This document shows, one piece after another, positions 4,239 through 13,299 of a stretch of 16,486 nucleotides of DNA. Numbering within the stretch: position 1 is the stretch's first letter; the number at the start of each line of letters is the position of its first letter. Position numbers and translations under genes: made by a program. Below the pieces are notes generated by a model. That model ran no database searches. It worked only from the letters and a program-made list of their open reading frames with translations, and was not told the origin of the DNA. The stretch comes from a virus (taxonomy: Duplodnaviria; Heunggongvirae; Uroviricota; Caudoviricetes): the IMG/VR virus record IMGVR_UViG_2740892258_000006; one strand, given 5' to 3'.

Positions 4239-4338
4239 ATTTTGTAGACCAGTGCTGCATGCTCCTGCAGCTTCGAAATTGAGAGGTAATTTTGTAGACC
4301 AGTGCTGCATGCTCCTGCAGCTTCGAAATTGAGAGGTA
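4239..4338. repeat. Perfect tandem duplication, 2 x 50 bp (4239-4288 = 4289-4338)
   Basis: Identical copies read directly from sequence. Confidence 0.95.
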
Positions 4339-6487: not shown

Positions 6488-6968
6488 TTAATTATCCCCT
6501 CTAAGAACAGAGTCATCCAGATTAGCCGAATCCTTGTTGTTGGGGAATAACCAGGCCCACCTCGCCTGATGTGGCTAAAAGCAGGCACATAACAGCTAAG
6601 TATTTTCAACCAGAGAGAATCCTTAGCGTTGTGGTGAATGCGGCTCAGCGCACGCGGGTTAAGGTTGAGGCTGACAGTCGACCTTCTGTGGATACCCACC
6701 CGCCTGGTGTGCAACCTTCGCCAGGCACCGGGAGGCACCCGGCACCACAACTTTATGCTGTGTGTAGTCCTGGCGGTACCAGCATGCCCTTATTTCTGCT
6801 CAGGGTGTTAATGAAATTATCAGTAAGATTGGTGCCGACGCAGTGGCATTACCTGAAAATTTCCGCATTCATGATCTGGAAAAATTTAATTTAAATCGCT
6901 TCCGTTTCCGTGGTGCGCTTTCCACTGCCAGCATCGATGACTTTACCCGTTATTCTAAAGATCTTGCG

Positions 6969-7080
6969 GATGAAGGCACCCGCTGCTTTATCGATGCCGA
7001 TAATATGCGTGCCGTCAGTGTGCTGATGAAGGCACCCGCTGCTTTATCGATGCCGATAATATGCGTGCCGTCAGTGTGCT
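6969..7080. repeat. Perfect tandem duplication, 2 x 56 bp (6969-7024 = 7025-7080)
   Basis: Identical copies read directly from sequence. Confidence 0.95.
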
Positions 7081-7204: not shown

Positions 7205-7316
7205 GCAGAATGGATTGAAGACTGGGCCGACTACCTTGTGGGCTTTGATGCTAATGGTGAGCAGAATGGATTGAAGACTGGGCCGACTACCTTGTGGGCT
7301 TTGATGCTAATGGTGA
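7205..7316. repeat. Perfect tandem duplication, 2 x 56 bp (7205-7260 = 7261-7316)
   Basis: Identical copies read directly from sequence. Confidence 0.95.
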
Positions 7317-7980
7317 TGCCATTCAGGCAACAAAAGCGGCTGCGGCAGTCCGTAAAATCACGATTGAAGCAAACCAGACCGCTGATTTTGAAGACAATGA
7401 CTTCAGCGGCAAACGCTCCCTGATGGAGTCTGTCGAAGCGAAGACCAAAGATATTATGCCAGTGGCATTTGAATTTAAATGCGTTCCGTTTGAAGGCCTG
7501 AAAGAACGTCCGTTTAAATTACGCCTCAGCATTATCACTGGCGATCGTCCTGTACTGGTTCTGCGCATTATTCAGCTGGAAGCAGTGCAGGAAGAAATGG
7601 CTAACGAATTTCGTGATCTGCTTGTTGAGAAATTCAAGGACAGCAAAGTAGAAACCTTTATTGGTACTTTTACCGCCTGATTTCATTACTGCAAATGCCC
7701 CTGCGGGGGCATTTATGGAAACGTAATTGACTCAATAATCGCCGGATGGTGAGGGCTTTCTTTTACCAGAATTCAGCGCGGTGCAGCGCATATACGTGGA
7801 GAACAAAATGTCATTTATTAAAACTTTTTCCGGGAAGCATTTTTATTATGACAGGATAAATAAAGACGACATCGTTATTAACGATATCGCGGTTTCTCTT
7901 TCAAATATCTGTCGCTTTGCAGGACATCTTTCACATTTCTACAGCGTCGCCCAACATGCGGTGCTTTGCAGCCAACTGGT

Positions 7981-8092
7981 ACCGCAGGAATTTGCTTTTG
8001 AAGCGTTAATGCATGATGCAACAGAAGCGTATTGCCACCGCAGGAATTTGCTTTTGAAGCGTTAATGCATGATGCAACAGAAGCGTATTGCC
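7981..8092. repeat. Perfect tandem duplication, 2 x 56 bp (7981-8036 = 8037-8092)
   Basis: Identical copies read directly from sequence. Confidence 0.95.
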
Positions 8093-8222: not shown

Positions 8223-8334
8223 CATCATGCTGGCAACCGAACGCCGCGATCTCGGGCTTGATGATGGCTCTTTCTGGCCATCATGCTGGCAACCGAACGC
8301 CGCGATCTCGGGCTTGATGATGGCTCTTTCTGGC
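8223..8334. repeat. Perfect tandem duplication, 2 x 56 bp (8223-8278 = 8279-8334)
   Basis: Identical copies read directly from sequence. Confidence 0.95.
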
Positions 8335-8552
8335 CCGTACTGGAAGGTATCCCGGCAACAGAGATGTTCAAAGTTATTCCACTGTCGCCAGGCCATACCT
8401 ATGGGATGTTTATGGAACGCTTTAAAGAGTTAACTGAGTCGTAAAAATCAGCACGTACGAATTCAAACTCTGCCATAAAAGAACATATAAGTAATTTATT
8501 AACATATAGATATAGGTTATATTACAAATTGAAAAATTATTGGAGAGCAACA

Positions 8553-9419
8553 ATGAATCAAAATCCATTCTCATTCTATGACTTTCTTGGATATTTAATA
8601 CCAGGTGGTTTTTTTATCCTATTAATGTATTTCTGTGGTTTGACATTCGATCTAGATATTGTTATTGACTTAAGTGAATTGCTCAGAGGTCAAAGTCAAA
8701 TCTTTGGCATTTTGAACTACGCTTCAATAGTTATTATATCTTATATAGCTGGACATTTTATTTCTATCACGTCAGCATTTTTTATCGAAAAATACATGAA
8801 TAAAGAATTAGGATATCCTTCCAAATATCTATTTAAAAAATTGATAGATACCTCAGAAAGCATTTGTAGCCCATCATGCGATGAGAGAAGCGCTGATAAA
8901 AAAACAAAAATAAAGAATCGCATAATCAAATGCGTATTATGTCCAATAATACTATGGGATTTTATAACACAAAAACTATGTTATTCTCAATCTCTACCAT
9001 TTCATTTAGCTAATACAACATGGTTAATGATCAAAGAAGGTTATGAGAAAAAGTTCATAACAAATCGCCAATTATTACAAGATAAAAACGGACTTGATGA
9101 TGATCTCTTCAGATTGGCATATCATTATGTTTATGAGTTTTCAAAACAACATCAAACAAAAATTCAAAACTATGTTGCATTATATGGTTTTTGCAGAAAC
9201 ATATGTTTAATCTTTATAATTTCATTTTGGGTATCAGTTCCAACCTTTATTTATCGATTATGTACTCATAGTGATTATCTTTATAGTTTACTTTCAATAA
9301 TGCTTAGCTTTTTCTTCGTCTATGTTTTCTATGTTGGTTTTGTTAAATTTTATAGAAGATATACTTTAGAAGTATTAATGGCATTTGCTGTACTTCAAAG
9401 TAACGACACTATTCGTTAA
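8553..9419 (+). CDS. AT-rich multi-pass membrane protein (4-5 predicted TM helices), moron of unknown function
   Basis: ATG 8553 with GGAGA 7 nt upstream; hydrophobic segments FLGYLIPGGFFILLMYF, IFGILNYASIVIISYIAGHFI, ICLIFIISFWVSVPTFIY, LLSIMLSFFFVYVFYVGFV; strongly AT-rich versus neighbours. Confidence 0.6.
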   Translation: MNQNPFSFYDFLGYLIPGGFFILLMYFCGLTFDLDIVIDLSELLRGQSQIFGILNYASIVIISYIAGHFISITSAFFIEKYMNKELGYPSKYLFKKLIDTSESICSPSCDERSADKKTKIKNRIIKCVLCPIILWDFITQKLCYSQSLPFHLANTTWLMIKEGYEKKFITNRQLLQDKNGLDDDLFRLAYHYVYEFSKQHQTKIQNYVALYGFCRNICLIFIISFWVSVPTFIYRLCTHSDYLYSLLSIMLSFFFVYVFYVGFVKFYRRYTLEVLMAFAVLQSNDTIR

Positions 9420-9460
9420 TAATGTTGCTCCCGTGTGCAGACGGGATAATGGAGAAACGT

Positions 9461-9667
9461 ATGCTGAACCTCGATTGTGTTCCTATCTCAACTTATTGCA
9501 AAGAAACTGGCGAAACTCCTGAAGCAATAAACAAACGTGTACAGCGCGGTGTTTGGCGTGAAGGTGTTCAGGTTTTAAAGGTTGAAGGCGTTAAGGAGAG
9601 GTGGATTGATCTTAGTGAGGTTGCAAAATGGGCCAGACAAAACTGCTCAAACTACCGCGCGGCGTAA
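9461..9667 (+). CDS. xis: Excisionase-like protein (Xis)
   Basis: Small basic protein directly upstream of and overlapping int; start at ATG 9461 (GGAG 6 nt upstream) within ORF 9422..9667. Confidence 0.6.
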   Translation: MLNLDCVPISTYCKETGETPEAINKRVQRGVWREGVQVLKVEGVKERWIDLSEVAKWARQNCSNYRAA

Positions 9668-10800
9668 CAATCAGGAAACACCACCAGGGAGAAACGATCA
9701 ATATAACTTTCACCTACAAAGGAGTTAGATGTCGTGAGCCGCTTTCCAATCTGGAAGTAACACCAAAGAACATTAAATACGCCGAGCGTACACTCGGCGA
9801 AATCCATAATAAGATCGAAAGGGGAACATTCATTTATGCAGAATATTTTCCCCGTTCTGCTCGTTTGAAAATTTTTGGTAATGCTGCTGCAAGCAAAACG
9901 GTAAAGATGTACCTGGACGAATATCTTGAAATCTGCGAAACAAGAAAACTTTCACCCTCTACGATTGGTGGCTATAAAAAATGCCGTAGTGCGTTAGCCT
10001 CACTTCACATTTGCCCTGCAAGTGAATTAACACCAGCAACCCTGAAAGCGTGGATTCAAAGCCAGAAAACAACCTTAAAAACCATTCGCAACCAGTTATC
10101 TTTCCTACGGTCAGCACTTGATGAAGCCGTGACCGATGGGGTACTTCAAATTAACCCCGTATCGTTAGTAACAGCTTCGCGCTACCAAAGTGATAAGTCA
10201 GAAGCAGAAAGCAGCTATGTGGTTGATCCGCTATCACCAGCAGAAGTTGATGCATTACTAGCAGCAGCCGGAAACAAACAATGGGAAAATCTGTTCCGGT
10301 TCGCCATACATACAGGCCTGCGTAGTTCTGAATTATGTGCCCTACGATGGCATGATATCGACTTTGTTGGAAAAACAGCCCATGTTCAGAGCGCAAGTGT
10401 TGTCGGAGTTATCAAAGGAACAAAGACAAAAGCCGGTACCCGTAAAGTTGAACTGACTGAAGAAGCAATGTTGGCGTTGATAAACCAGAAGCCATTTACA
10501 TTCATGAAGGATGCTACTGTCTTTGAAGATCCAAAGACCAATAAACCCTGGGCAAGTGCTGATGCAATTAGGAAAAAAGCATGGGTGCCAACATTGCGAA
10601 AAGCAGGTATTCGTTACAGAAACCCATATCAAACCAGGCATACATTCGCCACCAGCCATATCAGCCGGGGAGCAAACCTGTTTTGGCTTGCGGCTCAAAT
10701 GGGCCATAAAGGGCCTGAAATGTTATTCAGGCACTATGGACAATACTTGAAAGAGTATGATGGGAGGGCAAGTATCAAGGATAAAAAGGCTTTATTTTAA
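9628..10800 (+). CDS. int: Tyrosine site-specific integrase (lambda-type with N-terminal arm-binding domain)
   Basis: 390 aa; catalytic-domain signatures HTGLRSSELCALRW (Arg), RHTFATSH (His-x-x-Arg), GHKGPEMLFRHYGQY (His...Tyr). Confidence 0.9.
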   Translation: MGQTKLLKLPRGVTIRKHHQGETINITFTYKGVRCREPLSNLEVTPKNIKYAERTLGEIHNKIERGTFIYAEYFPRSARLKIFGNAAASKTVKMYLDEYLEICETRKLSPSTIGGYKKCRSALASLHICPASELTPATLKAWIQSQKTTLKTIRNQLSFLRSALDEAVTDGVLQINPVSLVTASRYQSDKSEAESSYVVDPLSPAEVDALLAAAGNKQWENLFRFAIHTGLRSSELCALRWHDIDFVGKTAHVQSASVVGVIKGTKTKAGTRKVELTEEAMLALINQKPFTFMKDATVFEDPKTNKPWASADAIRKKAWVPTLRKAGIRYRNPYQTRHTFATSHISRGANLFWLAAQMGHKGPEMLFRHYGQYLKEYDGRASIKDKKALF

Positions 10801-11409
10801 GTCATTATGCCAATCGTCTACTGTTTGAAACCAAATTTTTAACCTTTGCATAAAGGTACGATCCTTTTTGGGAGGGTGGTACCTTTGAAAAGAAGTATGT
10901 AACGCTTCGATAACTCCCATACAAGCATCAATTACTTCTTGTGCTTTAACCGGGCGATCGGCATCTGAAAGCTTGTGAGCGACCTCACAATCCAGAGTTG
11001 CTTTCTCTAGTACAGATGAGAACACCTCGTCAGGTATATACAGTCCTCTGCTTTCCAAAATGCAAATCAGTTTGGAAACTTGTTGAGCTTTAGCCAAGAT
11101 AGTTAACAAGTATGAAACAGAAGCCTTTGTTCTATCCTTTTGCAACCTTAACAATCGATGCTTTGATGCTCTAATTTTAGGTTGAGTTGTCTGACTGAGC
11201 CAATAGTTAGAAGAAATATCAGAAATTTCAATAACTAACTTTGAAATAGCATCAATAATTGATTTCGATTCAGAACGTGTCGCCAGTTTTACAGAATTAT
11301 TGTACGCAACTCGCCATCCAATGAAAACTAAGCAGACGCTAACTACTGTGATACACCACGAATACTGTCCTATTTGTGCTACTAATGACATTGGTTCCGT
11401 ACTGATCAA
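10792..11409 (-). CDS. Cargo operon gene C: membrane-anchored protein (one N-terminal TM helix, helical soluble domain), unknown function
   Basis: TTG start at 11409 with AAGAGG overlapping upstream stop (alternative ATG 11391); TM segment YSWCITVVSVCLVFIGWRVAY; 3' end overlaps int by 9 nt. Confidence 0.6.
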   Translation of the reverse strand: MISTEPMSLVAQIGQYSWCITVVSVCLVFIGWRVAYNNSVKLATRSESKSIIDAISKLVIEISDISSNYWLSQTTQPKIRASKHRLLRLQKDRTKASVSYLLTILAKAQQVSKLICILESRGLYIPDEVFSSVLEKATLDCEVAHKLSDADRPVKAQEVIDACMGVIEALHTSFQRYHPPKKDRTFMQRLKIWFQTVDDWHNDLK

Positions 11410-11419
11410 CTATCGCCTC

Positions 11420-11746
11420 TTATACTCTTTCTGGTTGTGCTAAATCAATAAATTTATCAATCTGTTCTTTGTAGAACGGAACATCACTTTTTATAATCAA
11501 ACGTGCTTTAACGTTGGCTTTAGGTATCCCTTCCTTACGGATGAGACCTCCAAACGCCTCTTCTAAGAAAGAGGAACCAACACCCAGTGCTATACCGCGA
11601 AAATCAACCACAATCTCCTGTTCAGTACCCTTCAGCGCAGGCACCAAAAACTCTCTACGAAATCTTTCCGCACTGTGTGGGCTATCCGTTGTGTAACGTC
11701 CGAAAGGTGTTCTGGAGAACTCCTTCGCTATGACGATATTTCTCAT
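11420..11746 (-). CDS. Cargo operon gene B: small STAS-like protein (DUF4325-like, tentative)
   Basis: 108 aa; AGGAG 8 nt upstream of ATG 11746; motif EIVVDFRGIALGVGSSFLEEAFGGLI resembles STAS-like DUF4325 as I recall it; 4-nt gap to gene A. Confidence 0.6.
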   Translation of the reverse strand: MRNIVIAKEFSRTPFGRYTTDSPHSAERFRREFLVPALKGTEQEIVVDFRGIALGVGSSFLEEAFGGLIRKEGIPKANVKARLIIKSDVPFYKEQIDKFIDLAQPERV

Positions 11747-11750
11747 AAAA

Positions 11751-12662
11751 TCATCTCCTGGGAACCAGCGACCATTGTAGTAAAGTACCCGGTATGTACT
11801 CAGCTAGCTTCTCACATCGAGGACTACTGTCATTAGAATTATAGCTATAACGAGCCCTTCCTGTTAGTATCAGAAGTGTCTCATTATCCTCACAACCTGC
11901 CCCAATAGGTCTCTTGATATCTTCAGAGCCATTTCCCCGTCCGGAACCAACAAAGCGGGATTCCCCTACTAACATAGCTCTTTCCACAGAAGATACTTCG
12001 TTTTGAATGCTATGACCATCACCATTAGGCACGAAACTTCTATAAATCCCCAATCCAAGGTCACAAACGATAAAAACGACTTTATTTTCATCACGATTGA
12101 ACCAAGCGCACTGCCACCATCGTTTACCTTTGAGAAGCTGAATATCTGACTCGAACCCCTCATCTTCATACGCATGATGAGAAACATTGAGCAAAGCTTC
12201 ACTAATCGCTGTCAGCAGTAAGCCTAACTGTTCATTATTAAGCAGAGCACTTTTCTGCAGCATGAGTACTGTTTCAACAATATGCTCGTAAGGTTCGACA
12301 GCTGACTGAAAGTATCGTTCCTCCCTCGTAAGTGCATTCAGTTTCTCTTCTGTGCCAGCAAGCAAAGCACGAGCAAGTCCAGTACCAACGATCCATCTAT
12401 GCCCAGATGGGTTATCATCCTTTTTAGGCCATTTAAAACGTATAAAATTAGGGTCCCGGGTTAAAAATTGAGCTCTATTTACTATGGCAAAGAACAGTAC
12501 CGATGCCGCAGCTGAGGCAAATTTTACCTTGGACAAATCAACTATAACTCGACCTTTATTTTTTACTCCAATCGATTCAATCGAGTTGATGAAGTTCAAT
12601 GTCCCAGCCCTAGAATCATCTGAGTAAATGCAAAATTTGCTTGGGGGTACCAGTATGGTCAT
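11751..12662 (-). CDS. Cargo operon gene A: GHKL (histidine-kinase-like) ATPase with unassigned N-terminal domain
   Basis: 303 aa; Bergerat-fold motifs in the C-terminal half: N-box EALLNVSHHA, G1 CDLGLGI, G2 GSGRGNG. Confidence 0.65.
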   Translation of the reverse strand: MTILVPPSKFCIYSDDSRAGTLNFINSIESIGVKNKGRVIVDLSKVKFASAAASVLFFAIVNRAQFLTRDPNFIRFKWPKKDDNPSGHRWIVGTGLARALLAGTEEKLNALTREERYFQSAVEPYEHIVETVLMLQKSALLNNEQLGLLLTAISEALLNVSHHAYEDEGFESDIQLLKGKRWWQCAWFNRDENKVVFIVCDLGLGIYRSFVPNGDGHSIQNEVSSVERAMLVGESRFVGSGRGNGSEDIKRPIGAGCEDNETLLILTGRARYSYNSNDSSPRCEKLAEYIPGTLLQWSLVPRR

Positions 12663-12813
12663 AGCGATGTCATTCTTATACGATGGATTTATAGATTATC
12701 TACTATTCATAGTTGGTTATGAAGACTGGGATATAACAGTAAAAGATACGTGTAAGATCCGCAAGATAGTTAATGTCGAAAAAATCATTAATTACATCAA
12801 GTTAGTGATATTT

Positions 12814-12851
12814 GGACTCGGGTTCAACTCCCGCCAGCCAATCATGATTGG
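12814..12851 (+). other. Candidate att remnant: 25-nt match to the 3' end of tmRNA/ssrA (GGACtCGGGTTCAACTCCCGCCAGC) followed by perfect palindrome CCAATCATGATTGG (12838-12851)
   Basis: Recalled E. coli ssrA 3' end is ...GGACGCGGGTTCAACTCCCGCCAGCTCCACCA; one mismatch here and divergence after CAGC. Confidence 0.55.
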
Positions 12852-12970
12852 ACGGTGTAAGGACTACACCAACAAAAACAGGAAGTTATAAGTCTCAGCA
12901 GGACACCGACCAGACGGTGAGGAGACAAAAAAGGATACGCAACGGAGTCGCGACTCCCTATGACATTAAA

Positions 12971-12993
12971 GCCCGCTGATGCGGGCTTTTTTA
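12971..12993 (+). terminator. Rho-independent terminator (gcccgc-tgat-gcgggc + T6)
   Basis: Perfect 6-bp GC stem, 4-nt loop, T-run; lies about 130 bp downstream of the ssrA-like fragment. Confidence 0.65.
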
Positions 12994-13299
12994 TTGGTCC
13001 TGACCCGCCCTGAATAGAATTCATCCAATTACAGTCCAGACATATACAGTATCCCTCAGCTCAGTATCAGCTTCTCGACAAATGGTCACTGTTATTTACC
13101 CGTTGCCAGAAAGAGAATAATTTGCCCCCATAGCCAGCCTTCCCGGAATCTGTATATTCATTAATATTGTTATCGATTCCATCAAGTAACATAGGTTGGA
13201 TGCGATTGATCTTACTCACATTAGTCGACACGGAACTCAGTAAGTTGAACTCTGAAAAAGCAGTTTAAATAGCATTTAAACAAATGCCACCAGTTCGAA

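Follow-up and report, generated by a model that had tools for sequence, protein, structure and literature searches.

The integrase gene (int) and the last gene of the convergent cargo operon (gene C) share their final 9 bp at positions 10792–10800 of the stretch of DNA that we analyzed, a 16,486-nucleotide virus record referred to below as the window. We consider it probable that this overlap is incidental: it would reflect drift of the int stop codon after a terminator hairpin between the two genes lost its loop and one of its arms, and it would not be a regulatory device. The overlap is annotated in RefSeq, and it is that of an ordinary convergent gene pair.

Positions 10780–10809 read GATAAAAAGGCTTTATTTTAAGTCATTATG, and the overlap, on both strands, is the 9 bp TTATTTTAA. 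On the + strand, int (9628–10800) ends in GCT TTA TTT TAA with its stop codon at 10798–10800, and on the − strand gene C (10792–11409) ends in TTA AAA TAA with its stop codon on the complement of 10792–10794; the codons of the two genes align in antiparallel across the overlap. The ORF coordinates and the RefSeq (PGAP) annotation of E. coli UTI89, which has the identical 9 bp overlap, agree with the initial annotation that the two 3′ ends overlap here. Its further statement that the stop codons themselves overlap was incorrect, as the stops bound the shared 9 bp and TTT lies between them. PGAP places the start of gene C in UTI89 later, at the equivalent of window position 11391 (199 aa). Both genes are genuine: int has characteristic domains and homologs, and gene C belongs to a family of 29 clusters with additional members found by profile comparison.

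We then asked how surprising such an overlap is. With a stop probability of 0.065 per codon, given by the local base composition, the probability that the nine codons from the end of int conservation to gene C contain no stop is 0.55, and the same 9 bp overlap was produced by 49% of shuffled 27-nt spacers. A 9 bp overlap is no more than chance gives. Pairs of this kind are common, and the E. coli reference genome contains 75 convergent overlapping gene pairs (PMC4161906).

The window is a lambdoid prophage integrated at ssrA, of the type found in E. coli UTI89. The excisionase gene xis (9422–9667, + strand; phrog_2917, E 8e-45; annotated as an excisionase in phage phiNP) overlaps the start of int. 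The 390-aa product of int is a tyrosine integrase (a site-specific integrase according to PGAP) that has the features of the arm-type enzymes, namely the Arm-DNA-bind_2 (PF12167) and Phage_integrase (PF00589) domains and an invariant ...LFRHYG... motif. Between yfdR and xis lies an ORF (8529–9419, + strand; 28–30% GC) for a 296-aa multi-pass membrane protein, which matches phrog_12528 (unknown function) and, weakly, the PADLOC models for the type VI-B accessory protein Csx27 and for tm_4; it is probably another moron.

Beyond int are three genes on the − strand, followed by the att core (CGGGTTCAACTCCCGCCAGC, 12819–12838, + strand), which is a copy of the 3′ end of ssrA (tmRNA) and corresponds to positions 348–362 of the Rfam tmRNA model. 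Because the three genes lie between int and att, with the ssrA 3′ end just beyond them, they are prophage cargo, and the term "cargo operon" used in the initial annotation is a fair description. In sister prophages the same operon is flanked by an ssrA 3′ end with which the att core aligns, and in the window glaH/csiD adjoins the prophage on its far side. The att core region is also similar to the attP region of phage LLS. The LLS attP core itself was absent when we searched the window for it; the att core here represents another portion of the ssrA 3′ end. The att core is followed by sequence that is 85% similar to the LLS attP arm and not by the native ssrA end (TCCACCA). This arm-like sequence (12819–13000 region), which includes a strong hairpin and T-run terminator at 12968–12989, suggests the remnant of a second ssrA-integrating element. 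An Rfam Leu_leader match at 12942–12992 (23.5 bits; gathering score, 50) was rejected as a terminator-hairpin look-alike.

The first gene of the operon (11751–12662, − strand) encodes a 303-aa kinase-like protein in which a STAS domain is joined to a SpoIIAB/RsbW-type GHKL domain, and the second (11420–11746, − strand) encodes a small STAS-like protein of 108 aa (DUF4325; PF14213, E 6e-14) whose motif GSSFLEEAFGGL, including GSS with its Ser-Ser pair, is invariant in 13 lineages. Gene C, the third, encodes a 205-aa protein with an N-terminal transmembrane helix and a helical bundle (phrog_30059). Most of the 29 homologous protein clusters in its family end at the same position, with the native C terminus ...WHxxLK. 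Its AF2 model (pLDDT 79.5) is all-helical, and a Foldseek search of the PDB with this model returned generic helical bundles and no significant fold match. Sequence searches of PADLOC, NCBIfam, and the PDB were uninformative for the three proteins, PHROGs placed them only in families of unknown function, and gene C had no Pfam or PADLOC match. The kinase-like protein had no tblastn match among GenBank phages, the STAS-like protein had no sequence match to solved STAS, VapS, or CapS chains, and we found no literature on the trio of kinase-like, STAS-like, and membrane proteins. The kinase-like family comprises at least 163 clusters and occurs across Enterobacterales, Vibrionaceae, and other groups. 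Upstream of the operon is a predicted promoter-like site (TTCATA-17-GATAAT, 12695–12723, − strand; 9/12 match to consensus), and its −10 element is kept in two related lineages (L008 and L021).

The interval from the int 3′ end to att (10764–12838) is, by sequence comparison, a swappable cassette slot. In E. coli strains and phages, at least seven unrelated cargo sets come after the same integrase (84%–97% identical in the CFT073, JJ1887, and O103 prophages and in phages phiNP and LLS), and homology breaks inside the 3′ end of int. The slot holds two hypothetical genes in CFT073, an AAA ATPase and a Dam methylase in JJ1887, ParA and two further genes in the O103 strain, an AAA ATPase in phiNP, gp31 in LLS, and other genes again in SK6988 and an O157 strain. 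Short direct repeats (GGATCTTAC and GTATCTTTTAC; GTGCATTT occurs twice in relatives) that look like integrase arm-type binding sites lie at 12725–12775 (− strand), between att and the promoter-like site of the cargo operon. If they are such sites, integrase binding could affect the cargo promoter.

The part of int that enters the overlap belongs to a variable tail. The nucleotide homology of int to the other listed E. coli prophages and to Citrobacter phage phiNP ends at 10761–10765, mostly at 10763, about 37 nt before the int stop codon. The integrase proteins are nearly identical as far as ...RHYGxYLKEYD(G/N), and conservation ends at about residue 379; there follow tails of 9–12 residues that are cassette specific and covary with the cassettes. 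In the window, this tail has about 12 codons (RASIKDKKALF, 10764–10800, + strand). Compared with the copy in Citrobacter werkmanii, 4 of 12 tail residues differ, against 9% for the whole protein. One of the differences lies within the overlap, where C. werkmanii has TCA and the window has TTA; it changes the gene C stop from TAA to TGA, which is still a stop, and an int codon from Leu to Ser. Judged from these patterns, int beyond residue ~379 appears to be an unconstrained and dispensable tail.

A different arrangement was found in sister lineages that carry the same trio next to an integrase of the same family. At their junctions, A/T-rich sequence borders a perfect stem of 7–8 bp, whose 4-nt loop contains the int stop codon; the consensus is AAAGGCYN-loop-NRGCCTTT between flanks that are common to the window. 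The hairpins are AAAGGCTC-ATAA-GAGCCTTT in L011 and L034, AAAGGCCA-GTGA-TGGCCTTT in L019, AAAGGCCT-TTAA-AGGCCTTT in L031, AAGGCCA-GTAA-TGGCCTT in L058, and AAAGGCCA-TTAG-TGGCCTTT in L021. In L030, which has no int and whose kinase-like protein is the closest to that of the window outside the window's own clade, gene C is followed by AAAGGCC-TCTAGG-GGCCTTT and then TTTTTT. A comparable hairpin, AAAGCCAC-TTAA-GTGGCTTT, is found at the int stop in CFT073, where the convergent cassette is unrelated. On either strand, the folding energy of the junction hairpins is −12 to −15 kcal/mol. A pattern scan scored the junction as terminator-like in L011 (in the int sense) and in CFT073 (in the cargo sense), and a canonical T-run is present on the cargo side in most lineages. 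We interpret the sister hairpin as the intrinsic terminator of the cargo operon, and since its T-run is mostly on the cargo side, we only infer that it acts in both directions.

The stem itself appears to be maintained. Among seven sequences, 98% of the cells in the stem are paired and three of the eight pairs show compensatory double changes. Neither the covariation score nor the percentage of paired cells was reached by any of 500 shuffles, whereas the counts of pairs and of pair types were reached by about 40 of 500; in controls with slid partners, pairing was 21%–61%.

The window lacks this hairpin and retains what looks like its remnant. At 10783–10798, AAAAAGGC is followed by TTTATTTT, so that the T-run comes immediately after an A-run and one arm. 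The window and the C. werkmanii type both have AAAAAGGC joined directly to TTTATTTTAA, with the flanks kept and 11–12 nt missing; the shortfall is a gap in the MAFFT alignment and is consistent with both L030 and L011. The simplest interpretation is that the ancestral-type state was gene C followed by a short hairpin with a GC stem, A- and T-run flanks, and the int stop in the loop, and that 11–12 nt (the loop and one arm) were lost in the lineage leading to UTI89 and C. werkmanii. Such a loss would have removed both the hairpin and the int stop, so that int would read on through GCT TTA TTT to the next in-frame TAA, three codons further and inside gene C, which would give the 9 bp overlap. 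The extension would be tolerated because the int tail past residue ~379 is unconstrained, while gene C keeps its native end.

Because the sister prophages have the hairpin and the window has its flanks minus 11–12 nt, the terminator-less state looks derived and not designed. Loss would be the direction of change, as opposed to a hairpin that was never present, and this rests on parsimony and on the 7-nt arm remnant. The deeper ancestral state is ambiguous, because trio lineages with other integrase families mostly lack the hairpin and have overlaps of −4 to −14 nt. As the terminator-less state persists in both E. coli and C. werkmanii, which are ~9% apart in int, it is at least tolerated and could be favored.

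We traced gene C homologs through protein, viral-contig, and metagenome searches and scripted the junction geometry in 55 loci; a gene C profile scan of genome contigs gave one locus only, and the viral and metagenome scans supplied enough lineages for comparison. All the int-adjacent lineages that were seen, which span three integrase families, have the trio convergent on int; in about 15 lineages it lies within 20 nt of int, which could reflect selection rather than compaction. The exact spacing varies. An overlap of 9 nt (−9) is found only in the E. coli and C. werkmanii types, so it is not conserved across relatives outside this clade; the spacing is +5 or +6 nt in four lineages, +12 nt in the Salmonella type, and −4 nt in L021 and L038. 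It is −14 or +19 nt in the second integrase family and −12, −8, −4, or +63 nt in the third. In L045, the distance is +1324 nt, with ~1.3 kb of extra DNA between gene C and int; an ORF embedded in it is transposase-like by eye. The trio also occurs away from integrases: in Providencia, for example, it is inserted between the lysis and the terminase genes, and Yersinia has it in yet another slot. At these loci it has strong terminators of its own, and profile comparison identified the third gene as a relative of gene C. An obligate link between the trio and an integrase was thereby ruled out. The junction distances and the int-free loci together indicate that close abutment to int is common and that the 9 bp overlap is confined to one clade. 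In two metagenome contigs (L013 and L014), the trio and a gene for a 240-aa integrase form a minimal island with a 14 bp overlap, located between lipoate genes of the Radical_SAM/LIAS and LplA-B types.

The claim that there is no intervening terminator was borne out: consensus scans found none at or beside the overlap, and the junction folds weakly (−6.2 and −2.4 kcal/mol over 50 nt). A GC-rich stem-loop with a T-run is thus missing from the window junction and present in L011, L019, L021, L030, L031, L058, and CFT073, and the convergent units of the window have nothing of this kind between them, as an interference switch would require. Promoter-like consensus matches are predicted at 12723–12695 (−) and at 9394–9423 (+). 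Because no terminator lies between or beside the two genes, any transcript extending to the end of either gene is bound to continue into its neighbor as antisense RNA.

For a cargo transcript that reads through, the first terminator-like site is a predicted hairpin in the 5′ part of int (9780–9799, − strand), which has an 8-bp stem with six GC pairs. It is GC rich, has a partial T-tail, and coincides with int codons ~51–57 (YAERTLGE). Most close int homologs keep this hairpin, whatever their cargo, and in more distant homologs it is disrupted. Antisense transcripts that enter int could be stopped by it, or it could just reflect the palindromic codons GCCGAG/CTCGGC. In the other direction, the next candidate on the + strand is the hairpin at 12968–12989, beyond the att core. 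Two further structures were rejected. A weak hairpin at 10700–10717 (+), with a 6-bp stem and a poor T-tail, falls within a conserved coding part of int (MGHKGPE), and termination there would cut int short; an inverted repeat in gene C (AAAGGTAC...GTACCTTT, ~10852–10886) has a 19-nt loop and no T-run and was reported by no scan. Both read-through RNAs contain stretches with more C than G, and Rho-dependent termination of read-through is plausible.

Published work shows that repression by an antisense promoter scales with the strength of that promoter (PMC4731013) and that converging RNA polymerases need a stem-loop if their collisions are to fall at a defined intergenic point (bioRxiv 10.1101/2022.10.23.513370). 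Given these studies, transcription would be expected to run on into the opposing gene once the hairpin is lost. The two transcription units would then no longer be insulated by an intrinsic terminator, and read-through would presumably be stopped by Rho, by polymerase collision, or by the distant hairpins. Mutual transcriptional interference between int and the cargo operon, as the initial annotation proposed, is therefore possible. The proposition that the overlap is a designed or evolved regulatory feature is unsupported: the overlap is at chance level, it is not conserved, it lies in a dispensable tail, and it stands where relatives have a selected terminator.

The overlap might instead date from the insertion of the cassette, illegitimate recombination having joined the gene C 3′ end to the int tail so that there never was a hairpin. 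The homology of int to all other cassettes breaks ~37 nt before its stop, from which it follows that the int tail travels with the cassette, and the trio lineages with other integrase families overlap without hairpins. Both observations are as expected for such an origin, but we consider it unlikely, because the window keeps AAAAAGGC joined to TTTATTTT, and exactly these sequences border the L011 and L030 hairpins. In addition, the int tail resembles those of the other cassettes codon by codon (GRASIKDK versus GQTSLKKI), which suggests divergence in place and not replacement.

Doubtful to a greater degree is the idea that terminator-less convergence provides functional coupling. Under this hypothesis, antisense transcription from the cargo operon over int and xis damps leaky excision in the lysogen, and induction reverses the situation: anti-terminated early xis–int transcription runs antisense into the cargo operon and shuts it off. 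The absence of an intrinsic terminator between int and gene C and the promoter-like site upstream of the operon, with a −10 element kept in close relatives, would fit this scheme. So would the recurrence of the arrangement, since the trio is convergent with int in all int-adjacent lineages of three families, mostly within 20 nt and often overlapping, and there is published precedent both for antisense repression (PMC4731013) and for the positioning of head-on collisions by a stem-loop (bioRxiv 10.1101/2022.10.23.513370). However, the overlap is no more than chance gives and its length varies among relatives; a covarying terminator hairpin is retained at precisely this place in the nearest sister lineages, which argues for insulation and not for coupling; the trio occupies other prophage slots without any integrase; and other cassettes in the same slot are codirectional with int. 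If convergent read-through into int is nevertheless used, a prophage accessory system would be linked to the excision machinery.

A more elaborate version, which we regard as very unlikely, is that the trio belongs to the DNA-damage-sensing CapK/VapK kinase–STAS family as an effector variant not yet described and that its recurrent tail-to-tail, often terminator-less packing against integrase genes of three families represents real coupling. If this were true, cargo transcription would damp int and xis in the lysogen, and upon induction read-through from int would silence the cargo effector, so that the host would be spared during lytic growth.

That the overlap is an artefact of annotation or assembly is scarcely credible: the left half of the window has 56-nt tandem duplications that resemble assembly artefacts, but from 8279 to its end the window has one mismatch to UTI89, the junction is 99.9%–100% identical in 122 of 5426 complete E. 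coli genomes, and both ORFs encode conserved proteins that end as described above. The duplications (six of 56 nt and one of 50 nt) are at 1555–1666, 1885–1996, 4239–4338, 6965–7076, 7205–7316, 7970–8081, and 8223–8334, all at least 2.4 kb from the overlap. Relative to UTI89 there are also several deletions, and genes such as yfdR are frameshifted. The constant unit length suggests that the duplications are an artefact of assembly or stitching.

We conclude that incidental overlap following hairpin loss is the preferred reading. The overlap itself matters little, being common, annotated, and at chance level, and its value is the modest one of an example in which an overlap and the loss of a terminator would both arise from one small deletion in a stop-bearing hairpin. 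Its surroundings matter more, namely the cassette slot of the ssrA-integrated lambdoid prophages and the widespread, uncharacterized three-gene module that occupies it here.

The closest counterparts of this module are VapKSC and CapK–CapS, in which a STAS-GHKL kinase is combined with an effector and with a STAS protein that serves as substrate or antitoxin (Chambers et al., EMBO J 2026, PMC13373217). VapKSC is an anti-phage system whose third gene encodes the PIN nuclease VapC, and the CapKS pair precedes a known immune operon (PMC13373217). The cargo operon has the same gene order and architecture and is likewise prophage borne. Its kinase-like protein is a STAS domain fused to a SpoIIAB-like GHKL domain, as in these systems, and its partner is a STAS-like protein of ~110 aa with an invariant Ser-Ser, which, judged by eye, would be at the position of the SpoIIAA-type phospho-acceptor serine. 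In contrast to VapC, the third protein is a membrane-anchored helical protein and not a PIN nuclease, and a transmembrane variant of VapKSC is not mentioned in PMC13373217. By these comparisons, the cargo trio is similar to the VapKSC anti-phage module but differs from it in the third protein.

The position of the cargo operon 3′ of int also invites comparison with phage regulatory circuits. In the tI/sib retroregulation of phage lambda, the expression of the integrase is regulated by sequence 3′ of int, and integration separates sib from int. The window differs from lambda in two respects: it has no RNase III-type hairpin of the sib kind 3′ of int, and the cargo operon that lies 3′ of int is inside the prophage and is not split from int by integration. 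As the att core (12819–12838) is beyond the cargo operon, the 3′ context of int is the same in the phage and the prophage. The missing hairpin and the location of the cargo on the int side of att together argue that this region is not a sib-like retroregulator. Coliphage 186 provides an example of interference between convergent promoters of face-to-face transcription units in a temperate phage; the promoters of the convergent units of the window are predicted ones.

The junction hairpins of the sister prophages are compact, A/T-flanked stem-loops between int and cargo and in this respect resemble bidirectional terminators and the sites of programmed polymerase collisions (Wang et al., bioRxiv 10.1101/2022.10.23.513370), whereas the window has no stem-loop and the T-run of its relatives is mostly on the cargo side. 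The better match for the window is with ordinary convergent overlapping pairs (PMC4161906), with which it shares two real genes arranged tail to tail, a short overlap that holds both stops, and a stop lost or shifted in a dispensable C-terminal tail. It would differ from them in that the terminator disappeared along with the stop, which was situated in the hairpin loop.
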